DNA from: a virus
Virus record (IMG/VR): IMGVR_UViG_3300027762_000294
Location: 11,469-75,468 of that record
Length of the DNA stretch: 64,000 nt
Strand: one strand, 5' to 3'
In this document: in pieces, positions 5,884 through 64,000 of the stretch
Position numbering within the stretch: position 1 is the stretch's first letter
How the letters are laid out: every line of letters starts with the position of its first letter
The notes under the pieces: generated by a model
Databases searched by the model: none
Told to the model about the DNA's origin: nothing
The model's input: only the letters and a program-made list of their open reading frames with translations
Position numbers and translations under genes: made by a program

Positions 5884-5905
5884 CCTGCCCCGCCTAAGGG
5901 GCAGG
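5884..5905 (+). other. GC-rich hairpin between stop codon and next RBS
   Basis: CCTGCCCC-GCCTAA-GGGGCAGG, no following U-tract; preceded by CAAC. Confidence 0.6.
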
Positions 5906-6764: not shown

Positions 6765-7012
6765 ATTTTAAAACAAACGATGTTCGGTTGATTATGATTT
6801 CTATCCTGATAATGGTTGTGAGTTTTTTGTCTGCTATCTCAATACCCATATGGGTAGTTTTTTTTCTTGGAATAGTTTTAATTTTTGGTATGGCGATGGG
6901 TATGTTATTTATGGTAGAAAAACCCCATCCGGTAACACTCGGCGCTGTCATTACTGCGATGATGTTTGTAACAAACATGATTGTTTCATTACTAATCCCA
7001 GCCTTTAGTTAA
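6758..7012 (+). CDS. Membrane protein (about 3 TM segments)
   Basis: 84 aa, almost entirely hydrophobic. Confidence 0.7.
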   Translation: MLNFKTNDVRLIMISILIMVVSFLSAISIPIWVVFFLGIVLIFGMAMGMLFMVEKPHPVTLGAVITAMMFVTNMIVSLLIPAFS

Positions 7013-7021
7013 ACCCTTCAA

Positions 7022-7041
7022 CTGCCGGCTTAAGCCGGCAG
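7022..7041 (+). other. Perfect palindromic hairpin overlapping the next RBS
   Basis: CTGCCGGCTTAAGCCGGCAG preceded by TCAA; AGGAGG begins in its 3' arm. Confidence 0.6.
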
Positions 7042-7051
7042 GAGGTAAAAT

Positions 7052-8167: not shown

Positions 8168-8559
8168 TCTACAATAATCAAGAAACAGGGGGGAGATTTA
8201 AACTCACAGAACACCATAACTCGGGGGATATAAAGCCTGTCCAGATTTTTGACAACGGCTCCTTTAACATTTTAGGAGACCCCATAGAACCTGTATATGC
8301 CCAGGTTAGGGTATTTGTCCTGTTTACCCCAAGTTGGCAAGTAGACAGTTATAGTGCGCTACATGACCCTCAATCAGGATTGTTTTTCATGACAGAGCGG
8401 ATGAGGTCTGTTGGAGATGGGACTAACAGCGCCTCTATATTTACCGCGGCTGTAAATGGGGAAGAGGTCATGCTTCAACCCTTACACTTTGATATACACG
8501 GATTTCTAATTTTAGGAGGAATAACCGATGAGCTATCAAGCGTTATCAGATTTAATTGA
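8164..8559 (+). CDS. Hypothetical protein (131 aa; start MIYNNQ)
   Basis: ATGA overlap with upstream stop suggests this start rather than 7990. Confidence 0.6.
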   Translation: MIYNNQETGGRFKLTEHHNSGDIKPVQIFDNGSFNILGDPIEPVYAQVRVFVLFTPSWQVDSYSALHDPQSGLFFMTERMRSVGDGTNSASIFTAAVNGEEVMLQPLHFDIHGFLILGGITDELSSVIRFN

Positions 8560-13121: not shown

Positions 13122-13603
13122 GCTTATTCCCAGAATTCGGTTTGACTGTTCAGACCGTTGAACCCACAACTAAAAGTTCATCTGAAGATGACGGGAAGCC
13201 CACTAAATCGGGGAAGAACAAAGATTTGTTTGACGGGGGATTTTCAAACATGAACCTAATTCAAGAAGAAGAGAATACAGGGGACTTTCCACTATATACT
13301 TACGATCCTGATAAACAATTCAAACACCCTTGTAATTGTGTGGAGATAACGTTTGAGAATCAGGTGTTTAATTGGGCATCTCCTAGTAATAAAAAGGTAG
13401 GGGTTGATTTTTCTAAAGGTGCTACACGCACAATACGGTTAACCCTGCCCAGCGAGGTCCCTATTGTTATACCTGAATCTGAGGATATTCGTGAAGTATT
13501 AGATCATGGGGTGCCTGATCTTTACCTTAGCAAACCCACTCTTGTATCTAAGGGTAAAGAATCACGTCGTAACATCCGGGGAGATTTAAGTAATTATGAG
13601 TAG
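13118..13603 (+). CDS. Hypothetical protein in replication operon
   Basis: Overlaps primase and polymerase genes; no recognised motif. Confidence 0.7.
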   Translation: MSLFPEFGLTVQTVEPTTKSSSEDDGKPTKSGKNKDLFDGGFSNMNLIQEEENTGDFPLYTYDPDKQFKHPCNCVEITFENQVFNWASPSNKKVGVDFSKGATRTIRLTLPSEVPIVIPESEDIREVLDHGVPDLYLSKPTLVSKGKESRRNIRGDLSNYE

Positions 13604-49003: not shown

Positions 49004-50512
49004 TTAGGCACACGCATACATCCCAAACATAACAGTATAACCCATATTAGATTTACCGGCTGAGAACTCAACATTAACAGCTGTTGGGGTATTAAGAGCG
49101 GGGTTATCATCGTTTGCAATCAATGTTACAGAGGGCAAATGAATAGTCAAATATTGAGTTTTCCCGTTTGAACCTTCGCAACCCTTAACACTTTGCAAAA
49201 CCACAAATAGATTTGCCACACAAGAATTAGCCGACGCCATAATCAATCTTAAAGTTTTGTCATCTAAAAAGCTCTTAAAAGTCCCACCGATTTGTGATAA
49301 GTTGTTCACGCTTATTTTGTTAGGATATAGAGCGTCATTGTGTTCTTCAGAAGTTCTCCCTGATTTTTCAACCATATATGTTTCCCCTGTCTTCAATGTA
49401 AACTCAGACACGGGGTACACCTTCCCATTGAGATAGAGAAAAGACTTAGACCCAATGAACGGCAATCCGATACTGTTATCTTTAACCAGCTTTGAATAGG
49501 GGGGCGTTCCTATCTCGGTAGGATCCGTTGTGGTTGGGCTGATATAAAAGTCGCCTCCACATAACGCGCCAAAATTCATAGTGACTAATTCATTGGATGG
49601 GGATGATAAATCAAGCGAGTGAATTACAGCCCCTCGTAAACCTTTGTAATATTTCAATGCCTCGTTTGCAACAACCAAGTTAAATGAGCTGACTTTTGTA
49701 CCATTCTTAACAGTGTCAAACATATCAAGTGACCAAGAAGACAGGTCTGTCACTTCAAAATTTCGAGTTGTTTTGAAAGTAAAATTATTGACTCCCACGG
49801 AATCAACATAAAAGATTCCGCTAGTTGCAAGTTTTTGAGAAGTTCCTTTGATGATAAATGGCTGCCCTACTTCCATAGACGAGCCACCTGTAAAAGTGTA
49901 AGTGTATAGGTTAGTTAGAGGATCAAACAATTTAGACCCTGTAAACCCAGTTACATTTAGAGTTGACCCATATTTAACTTCCCCGTGTAATACAGAAGCT
50001 ATAGCATTCTTTGCAAAATCAGTCCCTGTGTAATTTGTTTCTAGAGTAGTGGTTACAGTGAACCCTGTGATTTGCTTATTAGCTACCTGCCCATCATCAC
50101 TTAAACAAACAGCTTCCGCCGATTCGGCAGCCCGTTGAATTCCTCCTGCCTTGAAGCAAATTTGTGTAAATTCAGGGAGAATGTACCACTCAGAATAGTT
50201 ACCTGCTAAAGCCGCAACTAAATCAATGTTAGTAGACGGTGTCAATAATGCACTAAAGCTCCCATTCGTCTCGGTAATAATAGAATCAAAACCGAATTCA
50301 TAATCCACACCATTTACTTTAACCCACACAGGTTGCCCAACAGAATATGTTGAAAAAATTTCTTTGTCAGTTATCCGTTTTAGCTTGACTTTATCAGCTG
50401 ACATTTCTAAGGTATTAACTGGAGTGACTCGATATCGTTCATAAGGCGGCTCCCCAAAAATTTCTTCAGATGCATACCCCATACTTACGTTACTATTTAC
50501 TAATGTTGGCAT
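49004..50512 (-). CDS. Tail tube (major tail) protein, 502 aa
   Basis: N-terminal SNVSMGYASEEIFGEPP typical of tube proteins; upstream of chaperones; paralog of 50608..53103. Confidence 0.7.
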   Translation of the reverse strand: MPTLVNSNVSMGYASEEIFGEPPYERYRVTPVNTLEMSADKVKLKRITDKEIFSTYSVGQPVWVKVNGVDYEFGFDSIITETNGSFSALLTPSTNIDLVAALAGNYSEWYILPEFTQICFKAGGIQRAAESAEAVCLSDDGQVANKQITGFTVTTTLETNYTGTDFAKNAIASVLHGEVKYGSTLNVTGFTGSKLFDPLTNLYTYTFTGGSSMEVGQPFIIKGTSQKLATSGIFYVDSVGVNNFTFKTTRNFEVTDLSSWSLDMFDTVKNGTKVSSFNLVVANEALKYYKGLRGAVIHSLDLSSPSNELVTMNFGALCGGDFYISPTTTDPTEIGTPPYSKLVKDNSIGLPFIGSKSFLYLNGKVYPVSEFTLKTGETYMVEKSGRTSEEHNDALYPNKISVNNLSQIGGTFKSFLDDKTLRLIMASANSCVANLFVVLQSVKGCEGSNGKTQYLTIHLPSVTLIANDDNPALNTPTAVNVEFSAGKSNMGYTVMFGMYACA

Positions 50513-50607
50513 ATGTTTATTCCTCTCTTGTTATAGTGTTAAAACAATCCAAAAAAAATAAAAGATTAATTTATCTCTCCCGTTTTCTTGGATTGGTTTG
50601 GTTTTTT

Positions 50608-53103
50608 TTATCCTTTCCAGTAATTTAAACTATATGTGTAATCGTATAATGGGGAATAAGCGGCACTATATTCCATTGTGACAGCCGTTGGGGTGTTTGA
50701 TGCCGGGTTATCAACTGTAGCTACAACCGTTACATTGGGAATATGAATCAAGAATTCATCACGGATATTTGAACCATCGTTTAAGCATGTAGCTGCACTA
50801 GACCCCCTTAAAATCAAACTGCCGGTGCAATTATTGTTAAACTTTTCAATTTGTTGAATCATCGATTGAGACAAGAATCCCTTAGTACTCCCACTGACTC
50901 CACTAAAAGAATTCAAGTTGACAATCCCCGGGTATTCTCCGCTGGTATCTGTTAAATCGTCTGAACCTGCATTTACGTAATCGGTAGCAACTAAATCGCC
51001 CGTTCTGAAACTGAATTCGCTAACTGGGAATACCTTGCCATTCAAATAAATGATGGAATTAGACCCCGTAAAGGAATGATTAAACCCTGAATCAATTAAG
51101 GTTGAATGATAGGGGTGTGGGGTGGGGTCTGTTAAACTTGGATTAGACTCATAACCCCCAACACCATCTACAGTCGTGTTGAGACTCATCATTTCGGTGA
51201 GGTTTGATGTAATTTCAAACGACTTGGTTAAGCAGCCGGGCAATCGAATGTAATAACCAATTCCTGTATTTACTTGGGTTAGTGTATAAGGAATAACATC
51301 CTTTCCATTATGTACGTGCGCCATCACTTTAATATTCATTAAAACTGTTATTGTTGAAGACGGCACACTAGCAAGGTGGGAAAAACGGATGCCCCCACTC
51401 GTCCCGGTACATAAAAGAGGTTTATTTGCGATTTTGGTATTAGGATAATCGCTAATCATAAAAAACACGCCCTTCGTAACCCCTGGAATCGGATATGGAA
51501 TTAAATAATCAAATAACCCTGTGGTAGAATTTTGACCTAAATTAGTCAATTGAGCAGTTATAGCCACTGACGATTGGGAACTCCAAGTCGACCTACTCGC
51601 ACTGGACAACATTAATAATGCAGGGTCGGATAAAGATAGAAACATATTTACTGTCGTGGCTAAACTATACCGAGTTCTGATCTTGGGACCGACCTGTCCC
51701 TCAATAGTCATACAAGGCTGTTCTACCGCTTCAGGCGTTCTTTGAATACCGCCATCTTTATAACAAATCTTAGTAAATGAGGGATAAACTTTTAACTCAC
51801 CTGCTAAAACAGTCACGGGCTCTGTAGACCCATCCGACCGAACGTATTGATCATCTCCAACTTTAATAAACTCAATTCCCGCGGCGTCTAAAGATGAGCC
51901 CACGGGCAAATTCTTGAGTAACTCTAAGTCTGGCTCCCCAAAGCTAAATAAGCCTTGCGGTGGGGTTACAGTTTCAAATGTCACATTTACTTTCTGAATA
52001 GGGCTTGGGATGAAAACCCCTTGGGTAATATCTTCAAGTGCACTCACTGTGAAGGTCAGTGGGTTTACAACTGTAACGGCAAAACCAGATTCCTCAAGTT
52101 TAGACTTAACTTTATCTTTAAAATTAGTATACGTATTCCCTTGAGTTAAATACACATAACGAGTCAAACCGTCTTTTGAATCGTCTTGATATGTGGATGT
52201 GACAATAAAGTCATAACCAACACCCCCTCTCACAAAACGCAATCGATCTCCGTCTGAAATATTAATATTCTCTAGGATATCTTGATTCTCAAAGCTTAAA
52301 GTGCGACGGCGGCTTACAGGTAACGCCCCTTCAATTATAACAGCATTCTCACTTAAAAGCTCTAACCGAGTTGGGTTGTAAGCTTTGGCTGTGATTACAA
52401 ATTTACTATTGGGAGTATCGATTGTAGTCGTGTAATCAGTCAATATTAAATTCATTTTAGCCACAAGATTAGGTTTGTAATCCACTCCATCATCATAAGA
52501 GTAATACACCCGTGTTAATGGGTTGTCGGGCGGAGGTGGTAACGTGGTGCTTGTGTTGAATTGGTAGGTATTACCGTCTAAAGCAATGTCAATAGGATTA
52601 TGCCAATCAAAGGTCTGTTGTTCATATACCCCGGGCACTGCCGGGACGTCAATAATGTCTGCCCACCAACTACTACTTTGAAACAGAGTACCCGATCCTG
52701 GCACAAAATCGTAAAGTTTGAGTTCAATGGTGTTGTCGTCTGTATAGGTGTAAGGTCCGGAAGTAATCTCAACATTATCAACTAAATCTTTGAGTGTCCA
52801 AATGCCGGATGTGTTATTATGAGGTCCCATCCCTGAAATAGACCCCACATAAAGCTCATCAACATCCGCCCACTCACTTCTGAAAATTTTACCTACAACT
52901 GCAATTCCATTTAAAAGTCCAGGTGTGATGTTAATTGTCGCCTTCGTATATTCCAATTCATTTGCCGCAGTGTAAGTGAACTGGTTAGATGCCCCTGTAA
53001 TAATCACGGGGATTGTGTTGGGTGTGCCAAACAAAGTTTCAGGTCCGTTGATAGCTAAACTTACATTTGAACTTAATCCCGTAAAATTATAATTATCTGC
53101 CAT
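50608..53103 (-). CDS. Second, larger tail-tube-like paralog, 831 aa
   Basis: Shares FTxICxKxGGIQR, YLNGKVxPVSEF and DNPAxNTPTAV blocks with the 502-aa protein. Confidence 0.7.
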   Translation of the reverse strand: MADNYNFTGLSSNVSLAINGPETLFGTPNTIPVIITGASNQFTYTAANELEYTKATINITPGLLNGIAVVGKIFRSEWADVDELYVGSISGMGPHNNTSGIWTLKDLVDNVEITSGPYTYTDDNTIELKLYDFVPGSGTLFQSSSWWADIIDVPAVPGVYEQQTFDWHNPIDIALDGNTYQFNTSTTLPPPPDNPLTRVYYSYDDGVDYKPNLVAKMNLILTDYTTTIDTPNSKFVITAKAYNPTRLELLSENAVIIEGALPVSRRRTLSFENQDILENINISDGDRLRFVRGGVGYDFIVTSTYQDDSKDGLTRYVYLTQGNTYTNFKDKVKSKLEESGFAVTVVNPLTFTVSALEDITQGVFIPSPIQKVNVTFETVTPPQGLFSFGEPDLELLKNLPVGSSLDAAGIEFIKVGDDQYVRSDGSTEPVTVLAGELKVYPSFTKICYKDGGIQRTPEAVEQPCMTIEGQVGPKIRTRYSLATTVNMFLSLSDPALLMLSSASRSTWSSQSSVAITAQLTNLGQNSTTGLFDYLIPYPIPGVTKGVFFMISDYPNTKIANKPLLCTGTSGGIRFSHLASVPSSTITVLMNIKVMAHVHNGKDVIPYTLTQVNTGIGYYIRLPGCLTKSFEITSNLTEMMSLNTTVDGVGGYESNPSLTDPTPHPYHSTLIDSGFNHSFTGSNSIIYLNGKVFPVSEFSFRTGDLVATDYVNAGSDDLTDTSGEYPGIVNLNSFSGVSGSTKGFLSQSMIQQIEKFNNNCTGSLILRGSSAATCLNDGSNIRDEFLIHIPNVTVVATVDNPASNTPTAVTMEYSAAYSPLYDYTYSLNYWKG

Positions 53104-53109
53104 AATAAA

Positions 53110-53661
53110 TTATCCTCGGTAGACGCGGGTTGTATAGCCCCCGTATTTTTCACACAAAAGACCTTCAATTTGTAACAATCGTCTAACATAATTGGACAAA
53201 TAGGTCTCGTCCTTATAAGACACTGAAAAAGAGTCATTAAGAGTCACAGAGGAGGCGTCTCTCTCAATTTCAGAAATGTTTGAACGTGTATCCAAGATAC
53301 TTAATAATGTGGTGTGGGATGACCACACAACAAGTCTATGTATAATCATGCTTATGAGGCGTTTGACTTTAGTCTCGTATTCTTCTTGTGTCAATTGCGC
53401 AGGTTTAGGGCAAAGACTTTCCAGGATCAACCCCTCTGTAAACTCAGTTAAATTATTGAAAAGTTCGGACATTACCCAAAAACAACAATAATTTTCTGAG
53501 CTTGTTGATGAGGAAAACAACAGCTCGCCTTTAAAATAAACTTCATATACATATCTGTTTGTGGCGTCAAAGGTTACAAAGTTATGTGTAAAGTCCCAAG
53601 TGTACCCTTCGTCTATGTAAGTTTCAAGATCTGGACTAGATTTGAAGGTTAATTGACTCAC
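53110..53661 (-). CDS. Putative head-tail adaptor/neck protein
   Basis: Size and position between capsid and tail tube genes. Confidence 0.45.
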   Translation of the reverse strand: MSQLTFKSSPDLETYIDEGYTWDFTHNFVTFDATNRYVYEVYFKGELLFSSSTSSENYCCFWVMSELFNNLTEFTEGLILESLCPKPAQLTQEEYETKVKRLISMIIHRLVVWSSHTTLLSILDTRSNISEIERDASSVTLNDSFSVSYKDETYLSNYVRRLLQIEGLLCEKYGGYTTRVYRG

Positions 53662-54184
53662 GAGACAATTCCCCGTCTAACAAAATAGAGGCTGCTATAA
53701 ACCAATACACCCGGTCTCCCAATTCAACAACTCCAAGCTCTGTCACAGGCGATGTGATTGGTGCCATGGTAAGAGGTAACTTTGTGAGTTGATTTTGAAC
53801 CTTAAGCAACATTTTATCTTCATGATTAGTGAGATATATCATCACCTTATCTAAAATTTTCATCAGGGTAGCCATGGCTTCTGAATCTGTGATTGTGGGG
53901 GTTAATTTTTCAGTTCTAGTCACCCCATTTGGATTGAAAAAGGTTTGACCTTCAGGCAACACTTCTTCAACCGAAGCTAAATTGTTGTTGATCAGAAAGT
54001 TTAAACCTGCTCGGACACAATCGAATACATACCCTTTAGGTTGTCCAATTCCTGAAGTCACCTCTAAACTCGTGCTATCTGTAAATGACGATGGTACTGT
54101 TGCAGGAGTTCCCCCATTCAGATAAACAACTCGAGTGTCTTGACTGACATTAAAAATTACAGGATTTACAAGAAATTTAATCAC
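53636..54184 (-). CDS. Putative head completion protein (GTG start at 54184)
   Basis: GGAG RBS right after the capsid stop; position. Confidence 0.5.
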   Translation of the reverse strand: MIKFLVNPVIFNVSQDTRVVYLNGGTPATVPSSFTDSTSLEVTSGIGQPKGYVFDCVRAGLNFLINNNLASVEEVLPEGQTFFNPNGVTRTEKLTPTITDSEAMATLMKILDKVMIYLTNHEDKMLLKVQNQLTKLPLTMAPITSPVTELGVVELGDRVYWFIAASILLDGELSRESINLQI

Positions 54185-54197
54185 GTTATAGTCTCCT

Positions 54198-55358
54198 TTA
54201 TCCACCGATGATTTGGATAGCAGGTTGAACTGCCACAATACCATAAAAAACATCTAAGGCTAATATCTTCTTAGCTGAATCAGGATCCATATATTCACGC
54301 AATCGCAAACTTAATCCTGTCTTAGGATCGCTGACTGTGCTCATAATGCCACCGCCATAACCTTGATCTACAACTGGCGGGACCATAGTGGCATAAACCA
54401 AGGACGTTTTGGAATAAAACAGGCTGCGGTTGCCGCCATAATCTTGTACCATAACCACATCATTTAACACTAGATCATCTTGTAAAGGAGGATTAATAGT
54501 TAAGCCTCGATACCCGGTAGTTGGTGATGTTACATTTGTAATGGTGTGCCAACTATCTGATTTAGGAACGTAAATAGAATCTCCATTTACCAATGTGGTG
54601 TTGTTGGCATTATAAATGACAAGAAAAGTAGAACCCTTAGTTAAAATACTCCCGTATAGGTTAGAAGCTGTCCACGTTGGGATAACAGTAGTTCCTTTCG
54701 TTTTAACAGGAATATTGTGAGACCGCGTAACCTCAAATCCCAAAGTTTGTCCAATTGAACCGGTGCGCAATGCTTCTTGAGTTTGTGCATTAGCAAATCC
54801 TAAAATATTAGCCGAATTCATTAAGCTCATATGCGCTGTAGATAATGTGCAATACATAGGATGAGCTTCTTGACTATAGCCCATCTTTTCCATAGCATTC
54901 ATTCCTGTAATCATATCTTGAAAACTGAATTCAGTAGAAACTTTAGTTGCATATTGAATTGGAGTTTGACACATAACAGCCACGGCATCATCTTCAATTT
55001 TTGAAGCAATTGCGGAAACCGCAGGCTTTAAATGTGAGTCTAAAAGTTCTGCCATTGAATAATCAGTTGCTAAACTAGACGCTCCGATTCTCACAGAAGC
55101 ATATTTGTTTATTTGACCCTCAACAGCATTAGGTTGTAGATCCTGAACCGTCGGGGCATTAATATCATATACAATAATGTTGTTAGGAATTGGAATTGGA
55201 AAACGATTAGTTCCTTGTGGAAACACCCCTGCTGTGGTTGATCTTTGTAAGATAGGAGTTCTGGTCTCGAGCTCGAGAAGCAAATTCCACATTATAACTT
55301 TTAAGGCTAGTGGTTGACTACCTGAATTGAAATAATTAACTTGTTTGATAGCTGGCAT
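54198..55358 (-). CDS. Major capsid protein, P22 coat (gene 5)-like
   Basis: LKPAVSAIASKIEDD, ALRTGSIGQTLGFEVTRSHNIP, GLSLRLRE...ALDVFYG. Confidence 0.85.
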   Translation of the reverse strand: MPAIKQVNYFNSGSQPLALKVIMWNLLLELETRTPILQRSTTAGVFPQGTNRFPIPIPNNIIVYDINAPTVQDLQPNAVEGQINKYASVRIGASSLATDYSMAELLDSHLKPAVSAIASKIEDDAVAVMCQTPIQYATKVSTEFSFQDMITGMNAMEKMGYSQEAHPMYCTLSTAHMSLMNSANILGFANAQTQEALRTGSIGQTLGFEVTRSHNIPVKTKGTTVIPTWTASNLYGSILTKGSTFLVIYNANNTTLVNGDSIYVPKSDSWHTITNVTSPTTGYRGLTINPPLQDDLVLNDVVMVQDYGGNRSLFYSKTSLVYATMVPPVVDQGYGGGIMSTVSDPKTGLSLRLREYMDPDSAKKILALDVFYGIVAVQPAIQIIGG

Positions 55359-55361
55359 AGA

Positions 55362-55892
55362 TTATACTCCCTTTACTAGGTTTTTAAATTCTTCATACGT
55401 TTTTGGCTCGGGGCTCGCTTCTTCAACAACAGGCTCTTCAGCTTTTGGGGTCAAGGTTTGTAAAAAAGTGGTAAGTACAGCGACCGGGACTTTGAGACTT
55501 AACTCCCCACCCGTTTGATAAAATCCCTCATAATCGATATATTGAGCAAACGGATCTTTGTGAGCTCCCAACTCTAACTCTCCAAGTCTCATGATTGCAG
55601 CTCTAAATTTTTCAGGGACTTCACTACTAGGAGGCACAGACACTTCTGCATCGGCTGTAAGCAGCGGTGGGGGAATAACTGACGCCGAGGGATCAACGAC
55701 CACCGGGGCGGGCAATTCTTCCACAACAGGGGCAACCGACTCAATAACTTCCTCAATGTTAGTTACAATACCATCAGGGGGAACGTCAACCACTACAACC
55801 TCTTCATTTGAAGTTGGAGGGACAATACCTTCCTCAATAAGCTTCTTTTCTTCTTCTTCGTCATTTGTTACTATGTTAGTGGTATCAACCAT
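55362..55892 (-). CDS. Capsid scaffolding-like protein
   Basis: Very acidic, Pro/Val-rich, immediately upstream of the capsid gene. Confidence 0.55.
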   Translation of the reverse strand: MVDTTNIVTNDEEEEKKLIEEGIVPPTSNEEVVVVDVPPDGIVTNIEEVIESVAPVVEELPAPVVVDPSASVIPPPLLTADAEVSVPPSSEVPEKFRAAIMRLGELELGAHKDPFAQYIDYEGFYQTGGELSLKVPVAVLTTFLQTLTPKAEEPVVEEASPEPKTYEEFKNLVKGV

Positions 55893-55913
55893 TTTGAATT
55901 CTCCTTTTTAAGG

Positions 55914-56915
55914 TTAAATTTCTTTTACTAAAGACATGACTTTCTCAACCTTGTCATATTCGTTTTCGATTAACTCGCATCTCAACACATTTGCGATATC
56001 CGTGGCTAGTCTAAAAATACGAGACTGTTGACTATTGTGACTGACCAAAGTTGTGATTGCCCCTTGATTCGACTCCAAACCTCCCGGCAGCAACAACCCC
56101 AACTCTTCAAAGATGCTATCTTTATGATTTTTGATGATAGTCTCCGTCACCATCAACAGATTACCATCATGAGTAACCCAACTGACCTCACCTTCACCTC
56201 TAAACTCAAATACCGTCGTTGGGGATAATGTAAAATCTTCGGTTGATAATCCTTTACGGGTAAACATTGGGAACGATGAAATGGTAAGGGATAAGTTGTG
56301 TGTTGATGCGATTGTATAATACGAAGCAATTGTTGCTAAATACTTGGAAAACACTGATCTTGTTGGAGTTAAAAAACTTTCTCCCTCATACGCAATAAAT
56401 CGCAAGTAATCCCGTTCCCATAAATTGATAATTTGTTGTTTATTTTTTGGATTAACATCCATAAGAAATATATCTGAAGAAACAACGTCATTCCCAACTA
56501 AATAAACACTCCCTGAAATCATGATTTCTTTCACGATCCCAGCAATGTATTTAGATGAGACCACGGACCCATCATCACGTTTGAACGTAAACGAATTTAA
56601 CATATAATCGACGCGGTTGTTAATCACGGTTGCTATGATGTTAGGTGCCACAAGTACACTTAACCGACCCCGATAAGTTTTTTGATCTTCATCCTCGAAC
56701 GGAGGACACAGGTATAATAACGTGTCTAAACAAATCCCATCTTGATATATCATTCTTACAATGTCATTCCCACCGTGCTGGTTTGTAGTAAATGTGATCA
56801 TTAAATTCTCTCCTCTATATAATAAATATACCACACTCCCCTTTAGAATACCAGCGGTATTCCCCTGAGTGTAGCCAAAGGTCCGACCAACGGTACTTTC
56901 GTAGGGCAATTTCAT
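55914..56915 (-). CDS. Portal protein (DUF4055-like, compact 333 aa)
   Basis: YLCPPFEDEDQKTYRGRLSVLVAPN and EVSWVTHDGN resemble DUF4055-type portals; first gene of the head operon. Confidence 0.6.
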   Translation of the reverse strand: MKLPYESTVGRTFGYTQGNTAGILKGSVVYLLYRGENLMITFTTNQHGGNDIVRMIYQDGICLDTLLYLCPPFEDEDQKTYRGRLSVLVAPNIIATVINNRVDYMLNSFTFKRDDGSVVSSKYIAGIVKEIMISGSVYLVGNDVVSSDIFLMDVNPKNKQQIINLWERDYLRFIAYEGESFLTPTRSVFSKYLATIASYYTIASTHNLSLTISSFPMFTRKGLSTEDFTLSPTTVFEFRGEGEVSWVTHDGNLLMVTETIIKNHKDSIFEELGLLLPGGLESNQGAITTLVSHNSQQSRIFRLATDIANVLRCELIENEYDKVEKVMSLVKEI

Positions 56916-56922
56916 TATGGAA

Positions 56923-57007
56923 TGGGAATTGGAATGAGGGCGACTTACCACTATCGTAATGTTAACCTCCTACTACGTAGTGGGAATTGGAATGAGGGCG
57001 ACTTACC
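56923..57007. repeat. Two exact 27-bp direct repeats separated by 31 bp
   Basis: TGGGAATTGGAATGAGGGCGACTTACC at 56923-56949 and 56981-57007. Confidence 0.9.
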
Positions 57008-57287
57008 CTCCAAACGAGCGATGGGAACGATACTACACCCCCCCCCTCCTTCAAATGCGTGAATACGCCTGCCTTAGTCCTGTATCAAAAAAATTCTAAA
57101 AATGCCCACGCCCCCTCAAATCATAAAGAAGGGGTGTAATAGCCCCGTGGTAAAGAGATCTCAGTTAAGCCGGATCATTATGCCTAGGGATGTAATCGTT
57201 TAAGGGTGGGGCGATTAGGACGTTGTAGGGCAAAATCAATCCAATAAAAGAAGAAAGGTTGATTAGGGCAGAAGCGCAGCCAAAGAT

Positions 57288-57434
57288 AATCTTCACAAAC
57301 AGGGAAAAACGTAACTAAAACATCAATCAAAGTATCACTTTTGACCGCGCTTAAGTTATTGATTTATAACGATACAGACTTTTTTAGACATTGGAAGATG
57401 AATCTTCACAAACAGGGGAAAAACGTAACCAAAA
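57288..57434. repeat. Iteron-like direct repeat pair
   Basis: AATCTTCACAAACAGGG(G)AAAAACGTAACYAAAA at 57288 and 57401. Confidence 0.85.
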
Positions 57435-57785
57435 CCCCAATATATCGCCAGCAATAACCCCACTTCCAAAGGGTCAAAAAAGATTAACATTTATTATTAG
57501 TGTGGGTATTCAAGTTATAGAGGAAAGTGGCTTGTTTATTTAGGAAAACTTAAGATCGCGTCAACGGCGCAGTTTAAGGTACATTGGAAGTTTACTTTGA
57601 AACACGTCAAACCCCGCCATATTTTACTACATTGAAGTATCTTTCATACGACGTATAATACCCATTTATTATAAAAATTCTTCTTATATATTAATAGCTT
57701 ACATAGTTTAAGATCACTTATATTATATTTTTTAAAAAAGTTTAAGATTTAAAATATATATATATTTAAGGGTAGTAACATCTTA

Positions 57786-58413
57786 TTTCATTTCCTTGAA
57801 TTGCTTTAACGTAGTATAGGGTAGGGGATGGTATTTAATACGTCATAAGAAACTGTCAAAGTGTCGAAAAAGATTGAGAGAGATAAGTGTGAATAATCAA
57901 TAACTTAAGAAGTTTTAAATTTGAAGAAGAGAGATAATAGGAAAATTTAGTCTAAGTGATCTGAAATCACGTAAGCCCTTGATTGATAGGAATAATTTTC
58001 ATAATAAACTTGTATGTATACTCTATATGGCGGTAAATTCTAAACACAAGTATACACTTACAAGATGTAATTGAACTTAGCCCGGTAAAGAAGATCCTTT
58101 CATTTCCTTGAATTGCTTTAACGTAGTATAGGGTAGGGGATGGTATTTAATACGTCATAAGAAACTGTCAAAGTGTCGAAAAAGATTGAGAGAGATAAGT
58201 GTGAATAATCAATAACTTAAGAAGTTTTAAATTTGAAGAAGAGAGATAATAGGAAAATTTAGTCTAAGTGATCTGAAATCACGTAAGCCCTTGATTGATA
58301 GGAATAATTTTCATAATAAACTTGTATGTATACTCTATATGGCGGTAAATTCTAAACACAAGTATACACTTACAAGATGTAATTGAACTTAGCCCGGTAA
58401 AGAAGATCCTTTC
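57786..58413. repeat. Tandem duplication of a 312-bp unit
   Basis: 57786-58097 repeated at 58098-58409, no differences seen by eye, with TTTC microhomology at the junctions. Confidence 0.92.
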
Positions 58414-58483
58414 CTTCCCTTTGGATTGCCCTAGGAGCCCCAAGGTTGAACGATCGTATATACCCCATGCCATATAGCCAGGC

Positions 58484-58515
58484 AAAAAAAACCCGGCGTA
58501 AACACTTGCCGGGTT
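58484..58515 (-). terminator. Rho-independent terminator ending the early array
   Basis: AACCCGGC/GCCGGGTT stem with a T-tract on the minus strand. Confidence 0.85.
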
Positions 58516-58542
58516 GTGGTTAGGTTACTTTACTTTACAGCG

Positions 58543-58893
58543 TTATAGATCGCGTAGCCAAGGAAGCCAGGTTAAATAAGGGATAAATCTATCTAGATAC
58601 TGCTGGTGTATCTGAGGGTCTGAGTCCAGATATAACTGCATAGTGGACCCGGGTTCATCCCCTTCAAAAATCAAGCAGCCATCCATCAGATCAAATTTGA
58701 ATAGGCAAGTTTTATACCCAAACAGAATGCAGTTCTTACGGGGCGAGCATTCAGTCAAGAGCCACGAGTAAGACTCGTCATACTCAACTCGATTGTTTAG
58801 GATAATGCCAGCCGCTTCATGTAATGTAAACTTAGTGACCATCAACAACCGTAATTCTTTTGCAACAGATAAGCACATAACTTCTTTCCTCAT
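58543..58893 (-). CDS. Early hypothetical protein, paralog family A
   Basis: FGYKTCLFKFDLMDGCLIF resembles blocks in ORFs at 60716, 61137 and 63070. Confidence 0.7.
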   Translation of the reverse strand: MRKEVMCLSVAKELRLLMVTKFTLHEAAGIILNNRVEYDESYSWLLTECSPRKNCILFGYKTCLFKFDLMDGCLIFEGDEPGSTMQLYLDSDPQIHQQYLDRFIPYLTWLPWLRDL

Positions 58894-58934
58894 TCTTGAA
58901 TTAATAAAGCGCCCCTTTCAGGGCGCGGTTGATT

Positions 58935-59507
58935 TTACTTCTGTCCTATGTCCCATGCCCCATTTAGAGCACGATTCTTATACCGCGGGTTTGCCCGTGG
59001 GTATGTGACTTGTATCATAGACGACAACATGTTGAACACAGAAGTGTTGATGGGTATGGGCACAAAATCATCAGTAAGATAATCCATTATGATGTTACCC
59101 TCGAGTTCACTGAGAATCCGCCCAGCCAATTCATCAGGAGTATCACCCCCATCATAAATAAGTCTGAACAGTATGTCCTCAAAACACAGTAACTCACTTA
59201 ATTCTATAGGATACTGCAGGGGATCACTCATGATTCTTTTTATACCGACCTCTAAAAAATGGTACTTATGTGCTAATGGAAAATAACACATATAATCAGG
59301 ATAAACCTCTGACTCTAAATCACGGGTGAAATCACGTAATGCCATGACCTCTCCAATATTCATGAAGGAATTCGAGCATGGTATGACTGGGCAATAAAAC
59401 TTGACCTTGCATCCCGTTCCTAGAATTGCAGTCACCATATTACCAACCGCCTCAACAAGTCTTACACCCTTAAAAAACGTGTACGGTTTATATAAAAGAT
59501 GAGCCAT
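58935..59507 (-). CDS. Early hypothetical protein, paralog family B
   Basis: LLYKPYT...YPDY...TSVFNM pattern shared with ORFs at 59993 and 61580. Confidence 0.7.
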   Translation of the reverse strand: MAHLLYKPYTFFKGVRLVEAVGNMVTAILGTGCKVKFYCPVIPCSNSFMNIGEVMALRDFTRDLESEVYPDYMCYFPLAHKYHFLEVGIKRIMSDPLQYPIELSELLCFEDILFRLIYDGGDTPDELAGRILSELEGNIIMDYLTDDFVPIPINTSVFNMLSSMIQVTYPRANPRYKNRALNGAWDIGQK

Positions 59508-59587
59508 TTATTCTGCCTCCCAATTCTGCATGTCTTTCAAATTTTGACCCGGGGTAAACAAACGTTCTTTCTGTTTTAAGAAAGACT

Positions 59588-59950
59588 TCATTTACGGTCT
59601 TCTTCAATCATATTCCCTCTCTTTATTGGATTGCAGGGCGCAGTTAATGTTAATGTATTAAAGACCAACTCCATCTTAAACCGTGGGTTGCCATACGGGT
59701 GGATACCTTTGTCTTTTAAAAAATCTACGAGACCACTATGACCCAATTTATAAATAAGGTCTAAAATACCTCCTATCGAAATATACCAACTCCCATTAAC
59801 AAACTGTTTGTTGTTTTCATCAATTACAGACAAGGCTTTTTCAAAATAATCAGGTGTTGATGTATCCACCCCTGAAACACAATTAGGAAAATTGTGCAAT
59901 AAAGTACGAAGTCCATATACCATAATAGGATTTACTTCAGGTAATGACAT
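59588..59950 (-). CDS. Early protein with BRO-N-like motif
   Basis: ALSVIDENN...WYISIGGILDL, similar to ORF 6126. Confidence 0.6.
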   Translation of the reverse strand: MSLPEVNPIMVYGLRTLLHNFPNCVSGVDTSTPDYFEKALSVIDENNKQFVNGSWYISIGGILDLIYKLGHSGLVDFLKDKGIHPYGNPRFKMELVFNTLTLTAPCNPIKRGNMIEEDRK

Positions 59951-59992
59951 TTATTCTCTCCTTTCTTTGCGCCCCTTTCAGGGCGCGGTTGA

Positions 59993-60661
59993 TTAACGTT
60001 TGAAATCACGCTGTTTGTTTAAAGGCTCAATATGGCGTTCTTTGGGGCGTTCGCTAATTGTTGATAACCCATAAAGCCGTGGGCGTAAGGCATTCATCAA
60101 AACTAAGATGTAATCAAACAGTGACATACTACCAGTGTTCGTCGTTGCCCATACATTAGATGGGAAGTCAGTACGATAACTTTCAATCTTAGTGTTGCGT
60201 AGTTGGTTAAACAACAATTCTATAACAAAATTATGCACCCCTAAGTTATCACGAAACGGGGAAGTGGTTTGTAAAAACTTCAACAGACGGTCAACATCAT
60301 TGATAGGCAATTCTATTGTTGAGTCAGAAAGTATTCTTGTAAGGTCAAACAGTAAGTACATATATTCAGGATTAACATCTCTCGGTTGTAGGTATCCTGG
60401 GTAAGGGGAAAGCCATAAATCATCATCAGTTGCTAAGGCACTAAGCTCATACGGGGTCAATACATGTTCAGGGTACAAGATGTTTTCAAAGGGTACTGTT
60501 GTAAACGAATGATCGCTAAATTTGCCAGTAATACCGTTTTTGTTCAACATTGTAGTGGTATAATAATCACCTGAATGAAATTCACTGAATAACAACCGGT
60601 AAGTTTCTCCTTCATTATCATATATAGTGTTGGGTCTATACCAATAACGATTGTCGCTCAT
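59993..60661 (-). CDS. Early hypothetical protein, paralog family B
   Basis: YWYRPNT...VLTPYEL...YPGYL...MSLFDY. Confidence 0.75.
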   Translation of the reverse strand: MSDNRYWYRPNTIYDNEGETYRLLFSEFHSGDYYTTTMLNKNGITGKFSDHSFTTVPFENILYPEHVLTPYELSALATDDDLWLSPYPGYLQPRDVNPEYMYLLFDLTRILSDSTIELPINDVDRLLKFLQTTSPFRDNLGVHNFVIELLFNQLRNTKIESYRTDFPSNVWATTNTGSMSLFDYILVLMNALRPRLYGLSTISERPKERHIEPLNKQRDFKR

Positions 60662-60715
60662 ACATTTATCTCCTTTCTTTGGATTGATTGAGCGCCCCTT
60701 GCAGGGCGCGGTTGA

Positions 60716-61084
60716 TTATTTGAGGCTATCACGAATTAACTTGGCTGGTTCAGGGTCGATTAAGAATGTTAGCATGACGCCGGGCATGACAACCATAAAC
60801 AACGTCCCAGAATCCAGTTCGTAAAACGTTGGGAACTTCACGGTTGTTGTGATTAAGAAATTCCCGCGGTCTAACAACGGGAACTCATCATGCAAGTGGT
60901 TTGACCAATGGGTTACCTCTTCCTCACTATAGCCACCGCCGTAAATGGGGACATGCATCATTTTAAGAAAACTATTACGCCCCTCATCACTGTTCGTCTG
61001 ATCTACTAACAACAGCCCGGCAAAGAACGCCATATTGAGCAAGCCTTGGTTATTATCTGGTAACAAGTGATCTGTATACAACAT
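60716..61084 (-). CDS. Early hypothetical protein, paralog family A
   Basis: PTFYELDSGTLFMVV. Confidence 0.7.
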   Translation of the reverse strand: MLYTDHLLPDNNQGLLNMAFFAGLLLVDQTNSDEGRNSFLKMMHVPIYGGGYSEEEVTHWSNHLHDEFPLLDRGNFLITTTVKFPTFYELDSGTLFMVVMPGVMLTFLIDPEPAKLIRDSLK

Positions 61085-61136
61085 ATTTTTTTCCTTTCTT
61101 TGGATTGATTGAGCGCCCCTTGCAGGGCGCGGTTGA

Positions 61137-61448
61137 TTAATAGGACTGTAATTCTAACTCGTCATTAACGCCCGTTATTCCCTCTTCTGGGATCTCCTTA
61201 CTCAAGATAAAACCGTCATCAATAACAGCATACAAAATCCAACGATCTAAATCAAGTACATACACGCATTCTTGGTATTTAAAGAATACCGCGTTTTTTA
61301 AACCCCATATGAAGTCACAATCCACCAAGCCAGAAGCGGCATTATCAGCGGCGGCATCTAAATGTTTAACAAAAGTTTCGGGGTCGATCAACGTCATGGT
61401 GATCAAGTCATTCATGGCTTTACTAGCCAATTCATACGTGTTGCTCAT
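61137..61448 (-). CDS. Early hypothetical protein, paralog family A (acidic)
   Basis: FFKYQECVYVLDLDRWILYAVIDD; AAGGAG RBS. Confidence 0.72.
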   Translation of the reverse strand: MSNTYELASKAMNDLITMTLIDPETFVKHLDAAADNAASGLVDCDFIWGLKNAVFFKYQECVYVLDLDRWILYAVIDDGFILSKEIPEEGITGVNDELELQSY

Positions 61449-61480
61449 TTATTACTCCTTTGTTCAGTTTGTATAATGTA

Positions 61481-61509
61481 ATTATAGCCAGGTTATGGAA
61501 AGAAGTCAA
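61481..61509 (-). promoter_or_regulatory. Strong sigma70 early promoter TTGACT-N17-TATAAT
   Basis: Near-consensus with an A/T-rich UP region; one of three near-identical copies. Confidence 0.88.
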
Positions 61510-61579
61510 GGGTCTTTGAAAAAAAAGTTGTAGAGTGTTTTCCTTTCTAGCGCCCCTTTCAGGGCGCACCTGTTATGGA

Positions 61580-62143
61580 CTAACCATTAACCACCGCGTG
61601 TATGATTCGCATAAGTTTGAGTCTATATTCAAAAAGCGACATTTCAACTTCTGTCGATTCGGCTGACGTTTTAGTTGGCAAAAGAGAAATGCGTAATTGC
61701 GATTGAGATATATAACCCAACACGTGATCAATAAACTCGTCAATTGTCATATCCGATTTCACAAGGACCCGGTATAGAAAACATTGGAGCTCTCTCAAGG
61801 GCATGTGAGCACTAAAATCTAAACCTAAGGTTTGAACCTGTTGAATCAGAAAGTTCAAAACCTCGTTCTGATATTGAGTAAGAAGATCCCGCTCTATGTA
61901 GCGGGGATAATGCGTTACTACGCATAAATCTAAAAGTCCCAGTCTGAGAGTCCCAAGATCAAACGAGGTTAGTATTTGTTCTGGCAACGGCAATTCTAGA
62001 GCTACCTCTTCTATATAACCCGGGTAGTCGTTTGCGGGATTCTTTTTCGTAATTACATAACCACATTCTGTTTTCACAGCGTGGACTAAAAGGTTTCCTT
62101 TGTCGTCAAGGGTATGGGGTGTATAAAATAAAGTGTTAGACAT
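61580..62143 (-). CDS. Early hypothetical protein, paralog family B
   Basis: LFYTPHT...ILTSFDL...YPRYI...MSLFEY. Confidence 0.75.
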   Translation of the reverse strand: MSNTLFYTPHTLDDKGNLLVHAVKTECGYVITKKNPANDYPGYIEEVALELPLPEQILTSFDLGTLRLGLLDLCVVTHYPRYIERDLLTQYQNEVLNFLIQQVQTLGLDFSAHMPLRELQCFLYRVLVKSDMTIDEFIDHVLGYISQSQLRISLLPTKTSAESTEVEMSLFEYRLKLMRIIHAVVNG

Positions 62144-62198
62144 ACATCAATTCCTCTTTCTTTGGGTTGATAAAGCGCCCCTTGCAGGGCGCGTGATG

Positions 62199-62945
62199 TT
62201 AATATCGTAAGTACCAGGTACAACCTTCGATACCGTTGATGATGATCTTGTTAGACCGCACATTATTATCAAACACTAGACATAGTGGTTGCATAGCCTT
62301 GAGTATGGTAGTTAGGGTAGAAAGCTCAAGATGGATAGAGTAGATGGGGGCGTTTGGCATACCCAATCTAACAAAGCCCGGATACTTGTCACCAGCACAA
62401 TCACCATGTATCAGATACTCTTCTTCTGCACCAATCATTCTGCCAAGGGTTGTTTTATCCGGATAAAGCCGCAAAACCACTGTGGGGGTTTTTTCAGTTA
62501 CGTTCTCTGTCTTCACATTTTCAACTGCTTTACAAAGAGAACCATACTCCAATTTAACAGGGGCACCGGGAGTGGACAGTTCAAATCTCTCAGTGTCATA
62601 TGGGGCTTGACTTGAGATCGATGTTTCTTTTACGCCAACCGTTGCGTTATACAATACGAAACTCAACGAGTTGGCAGGATGAGCGTCATAATAACATTTG
62701 ACAAGTTTGTTGTTTTTACCAACTTCGGATTTTAACCGCTTAACAGTATCTTGGGAGACCGCTAACCAAAAACCTTCACCTTCATAATAAGAGGGCACGG
62801 TATACTCAAAACAAATCCCGTATTTGTCAACCATTAACGACACATTCTTGCTAGTAACTTGGATCAGTAATTTACTTCCCTTCGTATACTGATCTAGTGC
62901 GATTTTTAATCGCCGTTGTGAGATTTCAAACACCTTAATTGCCAT
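62199..62945 (-). CDS. Divergent beta-clamp-like protein (early)
   Basis: Similar size and alternating strand/helix pattern to 17620..18321, sharing an API...L...L block; weak call. Confidence 0.4.
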   Translation of the reverse strand: MAIKVFEISQRRLKIALDQYTKGSKLLIQVTSKNVSLMVDKYGICFEYTVPSYYEGEGFWLAVSQDTVKRLKSEVGKNNKLVKCYYDAHPANSLSFVLYNATVGVKETSISSQAPYDTERFELSTPGAPVKLEYGSLCKAVENVKTENVTEKTPTVVLRLYPDKTTLGRMIGAEEEYLIHGDCAGDKYPGFVRLGMPNAPIYSIHLELSTLTTILKAMQPLCLVFDNNVRSNKIIINGIEGCTWYLRY

Positions 62946-62978
62946 ACAACTTTTCCTTTGTTTAGTTTTGATGATGTA

Positions 62979-63007
62979 ATTATAGCTCGGTTGTGGACAG
63001 AAGTCAA
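62979..63007 (-). promoter_or_regulatory. Strong sigma70 early promoter TTGACT-N17-TATAAT
   Basis: Second copy. Confidence 0.88.
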
Positions 63008-63069
63008 GGTTTTTTTTCTTTTTTTTGGAGGGGTCAGTGATTGTGCCCCTTACAGGGCACAGTTAAAGG

Positions 63070-63426
63070 TTAATACGAGATGGTCATGGCTTCCATAACG
63101 GCTTGGGTGCCTTCAGGTGTGAAGGTTATTGACATAGTCACATCATTGTCAATAATCATCACTAGATAACCGGTATCCAGATCATAGAAAAAGGGATCGC
63201 CCTGGTGTAAAAACCCTATGGCGCAATCCATTTGCTGTAGCTCTACATGGACCTTCACAAACTTCTCATAATCCTCCGGCAGTGGTTGCTTGGTCATAAT
63301 TTTCACTAACTCAGTCACACCTCCCAAACCCTCATATTCAGTGGAATTGTTGCTCATAGCTTTTAATTCGATGAGTAACATATGGCTGAGAAGTAGTTGT
63401 GTGCCCAAATCGTGTTGTTGTTTCAT
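63070..63426 (-). CDS. Early hypothetical protein, paralog family A (118 aa; start MKQQHD)
   Basis: FLHQGDPFFYDLDTGYLVMIIDN; the longer start in the ORF track coincides with the promoter -35 box. Confidence 0.72.
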   Translation of the reverse strand: MKQQHDLGTQLLLSHMLLIELKAMSNNSTEYEGLGGVTELVKIMTKQPLPEDYEKFVKVHVELQQMDCAIGFLHQGDPFFYDLDTGYLVMIIDNDVTMSITFTPEGTQAVMEAMTISY

Positions 63427-63460
63427 GTTAAACCGCCCTTTGTTTAGTTTTGATAATGTA

Positions 63461-63489
63461 ATTATAGCTCGGTTGTGGAAAGAAGTCAA
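63461..63489 (-). promoter_or_regulatory. Strong sigma70 early promoter TTGACT-N17-TATAAT
   Basis: Third copy, first promoter inward from the palindrome. Confidence 0.88.
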
Positions 63490-63667
63490 GGTTTTTTTGA
63501 AAAAAAGTTATAGATTTTTTTCCTTTTTTTGGATTAATTTGTCAAACGTTATCTTAATGAATTCCTTTTTGGCATCCCCGCCGGTTTTTTTCCATAGGAA
63601 TAGCAGATTACATTCCCAAAAGGGAACGGTATGACAGGTAAAAATCCCAAAGACCCCGAAAAACGGA

Positions 63668-64000
63668 TTATTGTCACCTTTAGAGAACGAGGCGTTCAAC
63701 CAATATTTGTTACTTTTGCACTGAAAATAAAATTTTAATCAATTCTCATCGCTATTTTTTAATCAATTCCCATTGGGAACGGTAAAAAATTAATGAATAC
63801 GCTCAATTGGGTATTAGTTAATGTATGCAAAACGCCGTTTTTCAATTAGTAACTAATACTCAATTTGACGTATTCTCTATCTTTACCGTTCCCAATGGGA
63901 ATTGATTAAAAAATAGCGATGAGAATTGATTAAAATTTTATTTTCAGTGCAAAAGTAACAAATATTGGTTGAACGCCTCGTTCTCTAAAGGTGACAATAA
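63668..64000. repeat. Large inverted repeat with imperfect palindromic centre (runs to window edge)
   Basis: 63668-63786 is the reverse complement of 63882-64000 (119 bp); centre 63787-63881 pairs only partially, apex near 63835. Confidence 0.93.

Follow-up and report, generated by a model that had tools for sequence, protein, structure and literature searches.

Why should one short hairpin stand almost unchanged behind seven of nine consecutive early genes of a phage, when those genes are otherwise unrelated or very diverged? The question is raised by the viral genome IMGVR_UViG_3300027762_000294, whose source sample was freshwater sediment. We analysed 64,000 nucleotides (nt) of it, hereafter the window, corresponding to bases 11469-75468 of the 75,468-bp IMG/VR virus record; positions are those of the window unless marked as genome positions. 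The nine genes, here called g1 to g9 in the order of their transcription, lie on the minus strand and form an array in which the repeated element is almost certainly functional; of the possible readings, an RNA hairpin formed by the mRNA strand fits it best. We favour, with moderate confidence, the explanation that it is a read-through intercistronic hairpin (a barrier to 3' decay and/or a weak attenuator) set in a junction module that doubles as a homology handle for cassette exchange.

The hairpin element and the early gene array

On the plus strand, GYGCCCCTNNCAGGGCRC was found at 58909, 59969, 60692, 61113, 61550, 62175 and 63043 with 0 mismatches in each case, compared to 0.03 occurrences expected from 100 shuffles. 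Read on the mRNA (minus) strand, the element has the form GCGCCCU-GNAA-GGGGCGC, a stem of 7 pairs, including a closing U.G pair, under a GNRA tetraloop. A first-pass annotation of this DNA had described a hairpin soon after the stop codon of seven of the nine genes, and this was reproduced here: the spacing from stop codon to hairpin is 9, 6, 12, 6, 6, 6 and 8 nt after g1 to g6 and g8, respectively. The distance from the hairpin to the next start codon is variable (15-101 nt), and since the stop distance is tight (6-12 nt), the position of the hairpin appears to be set by the end of the upstream cistron. All seven copies are intergenic and keep a constant orientation relative to transcription. 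Among the intergenic sequences of the array, the element was not found after g7 and g9, and the region 3' of g7 holds a weak AU-rich hairpin instead (-6.4 kcal/mol, z-score 0.24).

The loop is GAAA in three copies, GCAA in three and GUAA in one, variation being limited to the N of GNRA, and UCAACC lies directly 5' of four copies (after g4, g5, g6 and g8); both observations agree with the first-pass annotation. The copy after g1 reads GUGCCC...GGGCAC, a double change from C-G to U-A that keeps the pairing. The hairpin is present in the minimum-energy fold of all seven 88-nt contexts, and wider folds add no conserved helix. The sense strand folds more stably than the antisense strand (-13.2 vs -11.4 kcal/mol) because only there does a U.G pair close the GNRA loop. 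Together with the constant orientation and the look-alike junctions with other stems described below, this bears out the earlier proposal of an element at the RNA level. Searching the genome with a covariance model (R1) returned the seven copies, all of them mirrored in the other copy of a terminal repeat, and no diverged ones. Pairing of UCAACC with GGUUGG near the 3' end of 16S rRNA was dropped as a candidate, the rRNA segment being paired in helix 45.

The conserved unit exceeds the hairpin and comprises the stop codon, (A)AUCAACC, the hairpin and then a leader or promoter stretch. In hairpin register, pairwise identity rises from about 0.25 in the coding flanks to 0.52 at positions -9 to -1 and to 0.89-0.97 in the hairpin itself; 3' of the hairpin it is about 0.4 over the next 27 nt and at background further downstream, so that each junction forms an island of conservation. 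The downstream flank consists of UCAAUCAAUCC-AAAGAAAGGAG and the next start codon, or of an A/T-rich stretch and a promoter: five of the seven hairpins are followed by a conserved Shine-Dalgarno (SD) leader and two (after g1 and g3) by a promoter. The parts come in the order P1-g1-hairpin, P2-g2-hairpin-g3-hairpin, P3-g4-hairpin-g5-hairpin-g6-hairpin-g7-g8-hairpin-g9, then a terminator, where P1 to P3 are promoter repeats:

63461..63489, minus strand: P1, promoter repeat TTGACT-17-TATAAT upstream of g1, member of a 90-nt repeat family (D3)
63070..63426, minus strand: g1, 118 aa counted from an ATG with SD, in the weak family B with g4 and g5
63043..63060, minus strand: hairpin 1, GUGCCCU-GUAA-GGGGCAC, the compensatory variant, followed by an A-rich stretch and P2
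62979..63007, minus strand: P2, promoter repeat, family D3
62199..62945, minus strand: g2, 248 aa, sliding-clamp-like (a lead only)
62175..62192, minus strand: hairpin 2, GCAA loop, followed by UUUAUCAACCCAAAGAAAGAGGA and the g3 start
61580..62143, minus strand: g3, 187 aa, family A with g6 and g8
61550..61567, minus strand: hairpin 3, GAAA loop, followed by P3
61481..61509, minus strand: P3, promoter repeat, family D3
61137..61448, minus strand: g4, 103 aa, family B
61113..61130, minus strand: hairpin 4, GCAA loop, its 55-nt junction 96% identical to that of hairpin 5 (family D2)
60716..61084, minus strand: g5, 122 aa, family B
60692..60709, minus strand: hairpin 5, GCAA loop, family D2
59993..60661, minus strand: g6, 222 aa, family A
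59969..59986, minus strand: hairpin 6, GAAA loop, with AAAGAAAGGAG directly 3' and then the g7 start
59588..59950, minus strand: g7, 120 aa
58935..59507, minus strand: g8, 190 aa, family A
58909..58926, minus strand: hairpin 7, GAAA loop, followed by UUUAUUAAUU
58543..58893, minus strand: g9, its probable true start, read from the sequence, being the ATG at 58878 with a GAGGA SD
58484..58515, minus strand: canonical intrinsic terminator closing the array, AACCCGGC...GCCGGGUU and a U run, -13.9 kcal/mol

The three promoter repeats, in front of g1, g2 and g4, are near-identical and have A/T runs directly upstream of each TTGACT; the exact promoter consensus occurs 4 times in the window (0.02 expected). 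The listed open reading frame (ORF) of g1 begins at a TTG at 63489, inside P1, and the ATG with SD was taken as the start. These repeated consensus promoters, the true terminator after g9 and the larger conserved unit all go beyond what the first-pass annotation had reported.

None of the nine proteins matched a Pfam or PHROG family. Two highly diverged paralog groups were recognised, namely g3/g6/g8 (family A, 22-27% protein identity) and, more weakly, g1/g4/g5 (family B), with the flanking paralogs overall at 22-30%. Because the junctions are near-identical and the genes are at background, the junctions must have been kept by selection or repeated homogenisation, not by recent duplication alone. 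A profile of family A retrieved two other proteins only, among 1.84 billion representatives, and g2 has only two close homologues. The ESM Atlas model of g2 showed a TM value of 0.74 to a DnaN-family cluster and feature neighbours near gp45/PCNA clusters. Our own AlphaFold2 model of g2 was too poor for a fold search (pLDDT 40), and a PDB sequence search with g2 gave no match; a two-domain sliding clamp is not confirmed and is offered as a lead only. ESM Atlas held nothing usable for g6.

Probable read-through and rearrangement at the junctions

Only the copy at 58909 passed a loose terminator scan on the mRNA strand: it alone of the seven has 5 or more T among the 8 bases that follow the stem, where an intrinsic terminator carries its U-tract directly behind a GC-rich hairpin. 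Five copies have no U-tract, consistent with the earlier remark that most lack one, and are followed by purine-rich leaders; the other two begin UUUAU. Judged by the positions of the consensus promoters in the array, none of the genes g3, g5, g6, g7 and g9 has its own promoter, and their expression therefore needs read-through. Operon ends in this phage are hairpins with U runs. Elsewhere in IMG/VR, phages with this hairpin core usually have a U run after it, and the core can thus be seen as a terminator-type hairpin that here lacks its tract. Overall, the hairpins are probably not efficient terminators and read-through is likely. With a single copy passing the scan and read-through needed, the plain-terminator reading, which the first-pass annotation had set against its own proposal, is unsupported.

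In the mechanism that we propose, the sigma70-type RNA polymerase of the host would make polycistronic early mRNAs from the three repeated promoters. Each hairpin would cap its cistron 6-12 nt past the stop codon, with most transcription passing through, and would block 3'-to-5' exonucleases and/or attenuate weakly, setting the stability and dosage of the upstream cistron. It may also keep the next ribosome-binding site in a standard, locally insulated context. Hairpin and flanks together would make up a module of about 45-55 nt at each junction, which the machinery of general recombination may use to delete, insert and reorder single-gene cassettes; the module would serve as the homology point because it is the only sequence common to otherwise unrelated or very diverged genes. 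We infer from the sequence both the role in RNA stability or attenuation and the use of homology, rather than a dedicated enzyme, for recombination.

Rearrangements were assessed in related metagenome strains. Relatives were sought by a run search with the words of the region, and four other metagenomes (X2-X5, from two studies) were found to hold 21-35% of these words; their contigs were aligned to positions 50000-63650 of the window at 80% likeness. The structural genes were covered colinearly by contigs of 1-4 kb. Within the array there were 34 joint endpoints, of which 21 fell inside hairpin-bearing intergenic intervals (10% expected), 27 in these intervals extended by 10 nt on either side (13% expected) and 14 at most 12 nt from a hairpin (6% expected). 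An X4 contig runs through g9 and its hairpin to 58924 and, with 11 other letters in between, carries on for 174 nt from 63072, where a g1-like gene has its stop codon. In an X2 contig, 371 other letters stand in place of g4-g6; their limits are exactly 61455, a little upstream of where g4 starts, and 59995, at the stop of g6 (114-nt side), and unrelated sequence follows hairpin 3 as well. In a joint from X2, the g8 hairpin adjoins the g1 leader, which together with the X4 contig suggests that g1 lies between g8 and g9 in that population, with a hairpin on each side. A gene order that differs between related strains at the junctions is supported, with the caveats given below, and the earlier suggestion that the junctions are shuffling points held to the same degree.

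No relative was found when the major capsid protein (MCP), g6 and protein P0004 were searched against IMG/VR, or when an MCP alignment and protein P0002 were searched against JGI metagenome contigs. Blastn against GenBank phages gave no match, and tblastn with the MCP gave only Dinoroseobacter and Pseudanabaena siphophages at about 25% identity.

Junctions of the same layout were also present outside the array. A genome-wide list of perfect GC-rich hairpins contained two look-alikes in the unique region:

5884..5905, plus strand: hairpin CCUGCCCC-GCCUAA-GGGGCAGG, in the order stop +10, AACAACC, hairpin, GGAG; -18.8 kcal/mol, z-score -4.0
7022..7041, plus strand: hairpin CUGCCGGC-UUAA-GCCGGCAG, in the order stop +9, UUCAAC, hairpin, GAGG, ATG; -19.4 kcal/mol, z-score -4.5

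Their stems differ from that of the array element, both are far more stable than shuffled sequence, and their layout is the same: stop +9-12, CAAC(C), GC hairpin and SD. A layout kept with different stems points to a structural, positional role in the mRNA; it speaks against a binder of one specific sequence and against mimicry of a CRISPR repeat. A fourth exact match to the promoter consensus lies at 5983-6011, 78 nt downstream of the 5884 hairpin; three of the four exact consensus promoters thus have a hairpin 36-78 nt upstream. This promoter is inside a small hydrophobic ORF (5917-6080, plus strand) that starts right after the 5884 hairpin; unless this ORF is spurious, the promoter is internal to it.

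Searches with exact and relaxed hairpin patterns in IMG/VR and GTDB returned single, mostly unrelated copies; in GTDB there were only single copies per stretch among the matches listed, mostly in GC-rich genomes. The otherwise unrelated IMG/VR contig L011 (41% GC) has at 8230-8312 a single junction of similar build, in which the stop codon is followed by a first, small hairpin, then by GCGCCCUGCAAGGGGCGC and, ahead of the start codon, by a UUAUUAUCACAAACUAAGAGGA leader. This junction is 86% identical over 43 nt to the post-g2 junction, and the contig has no other homology to the phage. Rfam models found nothing in the array at E up to 5 and, at gathering thresholds, only a group II intron outside it.

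Several observations weigh against the explanation by read-through hairpins in exchangeable junctions. The compensatory stem change claimed in the first-pass annotation is present in the copy after g1, but a single compensatory pair was reached by 85 of 500 shuffles and is not significant alone. A contig variant at a loose end in X5 has a 4-nt UGAA loop in place of U-GNAA-G, and the GNRA loop is not strictly required. The UCAACC flank, though conserved, plays no part in the explanation. Among the rearrangements, many joint sides are only 21-42 nt long and possibly reflect the repeated junction aligning elsewhere, the joint endpoints are not independent events and come from short contigs at low likeness (80%), and the metagenome contigs place the crossovers at junctions rather than at the nucleotide level.

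Known systems and rival explanations

The first-pass annotation had suggested an undescribed modular system, which is too strong, as composites called PeSLs (promoter-early stem-loop cassettes), at which ORFans are shuffled, were published in 2010 and 2014 (PMC2839356, PMC4122927). A PeSL spans stop to start codon and combines an A/T-rich region, a sigma70-consensus early promoter, a stem-loop and an SD (PMC2839356, PMC4122927). PeSLs are found in the T4-type phages RB49/phi1, PST/T4 and nt-1/KVP40 (Arbiol et al. 2010, PMC2839356; Comeau et al. 2014, PMC4122927), where they are concentrated among ORFans and are crossover sites of indels and excised mini-circles (PMC2839356, PMC4122927). Similar to them, the present array has GC-rich stem-loops and SDs, and its early promoters fit the sigma70 consensus and have A/T-rich DNA upstream; the motifs flank small ORFan genes in a plastic region, most joint endpoints in the metagenome contigs fall at them, and homologous exchange would delete, insert or replace single genes. 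The full composite is found at the junctions after g1 and g3, and at the 5884 hairpin with the promoter at 5983. However, five of the seven junctions here have a hairpin and SD without a promoter, and where a promoter is present the hairpin stays clear of it, the -35 box coming 36-41 nt further downstream (78 nt for the copy in the unique region), rather than lying in or overlapping the promoter. One near-invariant GNRA hairpin is used here, compared to the variable polyG/polyC stems of PeSLs, and termination is probably inefficient, whereas reporter assays showed PeSL stem-loops to be effective terminators and PeSL promoters to be strong. In addition, the phage is not T4-like, has a genome of about 75 kb and carries the array in a 7.2-kb inverted terminal repeat. 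As far as its layout tells, the array is a variant of the known PeSL design with mostly promoter-less junctions, not a new kind of system.

A recognition or cleavage site for a specific protein or RNase, used in processing the early transcript into single-gene mRNAs, in antitermination or in translational regulation, is possible but unlikely. The core is invariant, a single-stranded CAAC(C) is conserved on its 5' side, also at the two hairpins of different sequence, and GNRA loops are common docking sites for proteins and RNA. The element and lambda boxB have the string GCCCUGAAA in common, and each forms, in early mRNA, a small GC stem whose loop is of the GAAA type. Despite this likeness, which the first-pass annotation had pointed out, the element cannot be counted as a boxB: it has a 7-bp stem and a tetraloop as opposed to 5 bp and a pentaloop, there are seven copies per array after stop codons instead of one behind the promoter, and no boxA was seen in the intergenic sequences of the array, where UCAACC is the only conserved upstream word. 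The scanned proteins held no RNA-binding, RNase or N-like family, and the nine early proteins showed no obvious N-terminal arginine-rich motif, small ORFs not having been searched exhaustively. RNase III sites separate the early genes of T7 and T3; those of T7 are irregular duplexes that contain internal loops and extend over about 20 bp or more, and the 3' hairpins left after processing stabilise single-gene mRNAs. The present array resembles them in placing a structured element after each early cistron of a transcript made by the host RNA polymerase, which is the functional picture drawn in the first-pass annotation; however, its 7-bp stem is too short for RNase III, which acts on roughly two helical turns, and the proposed RNase III-type site had to be given up. 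Moreover, the other stems and loops (GCCUAA, UUAA) of the look-alike junctions would be unacceptable to a sequence-specific binder, and no ribozyme and no antisense or guide partner of at least 12 nt was found. It is rather improbable that the CAAC(C)-hairpin is a dedicated processing or docking signal at which an endoribonuclease or RNA-binding factor, in the extreme case a Cas5d/Cas6-like one, acts after every cistron. If this were true, the array would be an expression system with "one signal per cassette", the signal also defining the recombination unit.

Weak or host-specific intrinsic terminators or attenuators that grade operon expression, as is said of PeSL stem-loops, with no role in stability and with recombination incidental, would also be an unlikely account. 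A GNRA-loop hairpin of this type is typical of terminators, the core precedes U runs elsewhere, and PeSL stem-loops terminate in reporter assays (PMC2839356); in the array, the beginning UUUAU tail in two copies and the one copy that passes the scan point the same way. These are outweighed by the missing U-tract in five of the seven copies, by the five genes that need read-through and by the U-tract terminators at the real operon ends. It is very unlikely that the element works as DNA, be it an 18-bp palindromic operator ("stoperator"-like) or a hairpin site of a dedicated recombinase (attC, REP/RAYT-like). The element has the form of a perfect palindrome (6+6, spacer of 6 bp), the endpoints of rearrangements cluster at it, and promoter-less single genes with hairpin-forming sites at their 3' ends and reordering at these sites recall integron cassettes. 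However, the spacer is conserved asymmetrically and always oriented with transcription, and the double change in copy 1 keeps a pairing that a protein half-site would not need. The element is also perfectly paired and 18 nt long, unlike attC sites of 57-141 nt with R''/L''/L'/R' boxes and extrahelical bases, and its AATCAAC and GTTGATT miss the attC consensus RYYYAAC / GTTRRRY. The scanned proteins gave no match to an integrase, transposase or HUH family, and GTDB (among the matches listed) and IMG/VR held single copies only and no REP-like family. Non-functional leftovers, copied with the genes by tandem duplication, are highly improbable: duplication did build the array, as its genes belong to two diverged paralog families, but paralogs that are 22-30% identical, with DNA at background, stand beside hairpins that are identical in six of seven copies, and the element also follows g2, a member of neither family.

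We give next to no credence to solitary, Racr-like mimics of type I-C CRISPR repeats that would soak up Cas5d or Cascade subunits. The plus strand reads GCGCCCC...GGGCGCG-GTTGATT compared to GCGCCCC-GCAC-GGGCGCG-TGGATTGAAAC in the I-C repeat of P. aeruginosa (PMC7761518), with an identical 6-bp GCGCCC/GGGCGC stem, a GATT-containing 3' flank and 20 of 27 columns matching, with gaps; RNA anti-CRISPRs of the RacrIC1 type are known, and so is a type I-C Racr that is co-transcribed with an acr gene (PMC10651486). The likeness noted in the first-pass annotation therefore holds for the stem, but membership fails. Such a mimic would be transcribed in the sense orientation of the repeat from a promoter no more than 250 bp away, but the repeat-like strand is antisense to all nine genes and three consensus promoters; the loop and 3' handle differ, and the longest run of identity is 7 nt, far below the published SRUFinder threshold of 41.1 bits (PMC10651486). 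The P. aeruginosa repeat serves in this comparison as a stand-in for that of the true host, and the look-alike junctions with other stems do not fit such mimicry.

Short intercistronic hairpins with roles of the favoured kind have precedents. REP/BIME sequences are 3' stabilisers of E. coli operons, and an intercistronic location of T4 tetraloop hairpins was reportedly described by Tuerk et al. 1988. Stable C(UUCG)G tetraloop hairpins occur in phage T4 mRNA (PMC4371310). Like these two groups, the present hairpins are short, stable and intercistronic, have no U-tracts and may be folding nuclei or 3' exonuclease barriers. They differ from the T4 hairpins in having a GNRA rather than a UNCG loop, and in being one repeated sequence with conserved flanks that is tied to cassette exchange; they differ from REP/BIME in that no host-genome family was found in GTDB among the matches listed.

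The inverted terminal repeat and the meaning of the junctions

The record holds the gene set of a tailed phage (large terminase, major head protein, DNA polymerase and endolysin), together with ribonucleotide reductase, thymidylate synthase, a Dam-type methylase and a 1,390-aa primase/helicase-like protein, in a genome of 38% GC. The two genome ends are reverse-complementary over exactly 7,167 bases, the first mismatch being base 7168, and the record is classified as having inverted terminal repeats:

56834..64000 (genome 68302-75468), no strand assigned: right copy of the perfect 7,167-bp inverted terminal repeat, holding the entire array
Genome 1-7167: left copy of the repeat; the early genes at both ends are transcribed inward

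The hairpin pattern has 14 matches in the whole genome, 7 per repeat copy and mirrored, and as the repeat is perfect only seven of the 14 are independent. Unique-side contigs of metagenomes X3 and X4 stop at 56860-56863, about 30 nt inside the repeat boundary, which would fit a true boundary in a k=31 graph.

Further features were seen in and around the repeat. Its outermost ~333 bases (63668-64000) are palindromic, with perfect arms of ~119 bp and an AT-rich centre of ~95 nt, and the record ends exactly where the outer arm ends; the palindrome is compatible with a genome end that folds back as a hairpin as well as with the midpoint of a head-to-head junction. Between the array terminator and the inner repeat boundary lies a ~1.6-kb non-coding block containing tandem 300-nt copies (57786-58397, 100% identical, spacing 312), at which contigs of relatives omit 454-612 nt. 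The DNA polymerase (13596-15356, plus strand) strongly matches PHROG 1252 (1e-34), and its match to Pfam DNA_pol_B_2, a protein-primed organellar and viral group of family B, is weak and below the cut-off (E 7.6e-5). A protein-primed polymerase, if real, would go well with linear DNA that ends in inverted terminal repeats. Rfam identified domain V/VI of a group II intron (56.8 bits, gathering threshold 40) at 48106-48191 on the minus strand, where two ORFs of the tail region leave a gap. One ORF of 7,744 aa (18442-41676, minus strand) makes up about 31% of the genome.

The location of the array in the repeat gives each end of the genome the same early genes, and a cassette exchanged at one end has to be copied to the other. 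If the favoured explanation is right, the PeSL idea would extend beyond T4-like myoviruses to an unrelated long-tailed phage from freshwater and subsurface samples, in a stripped-down form of hairpin and ribosome-binding site that is usually promoter-less and whose junctions double as recombination handles. Such a unit would be a compact natural "cistron adaptor" and a candidate part for mRNA stability or insulation. The early cassette genes probably serve host takeover or counter-defence, and the junctions may offer a handle for following their natural trade.

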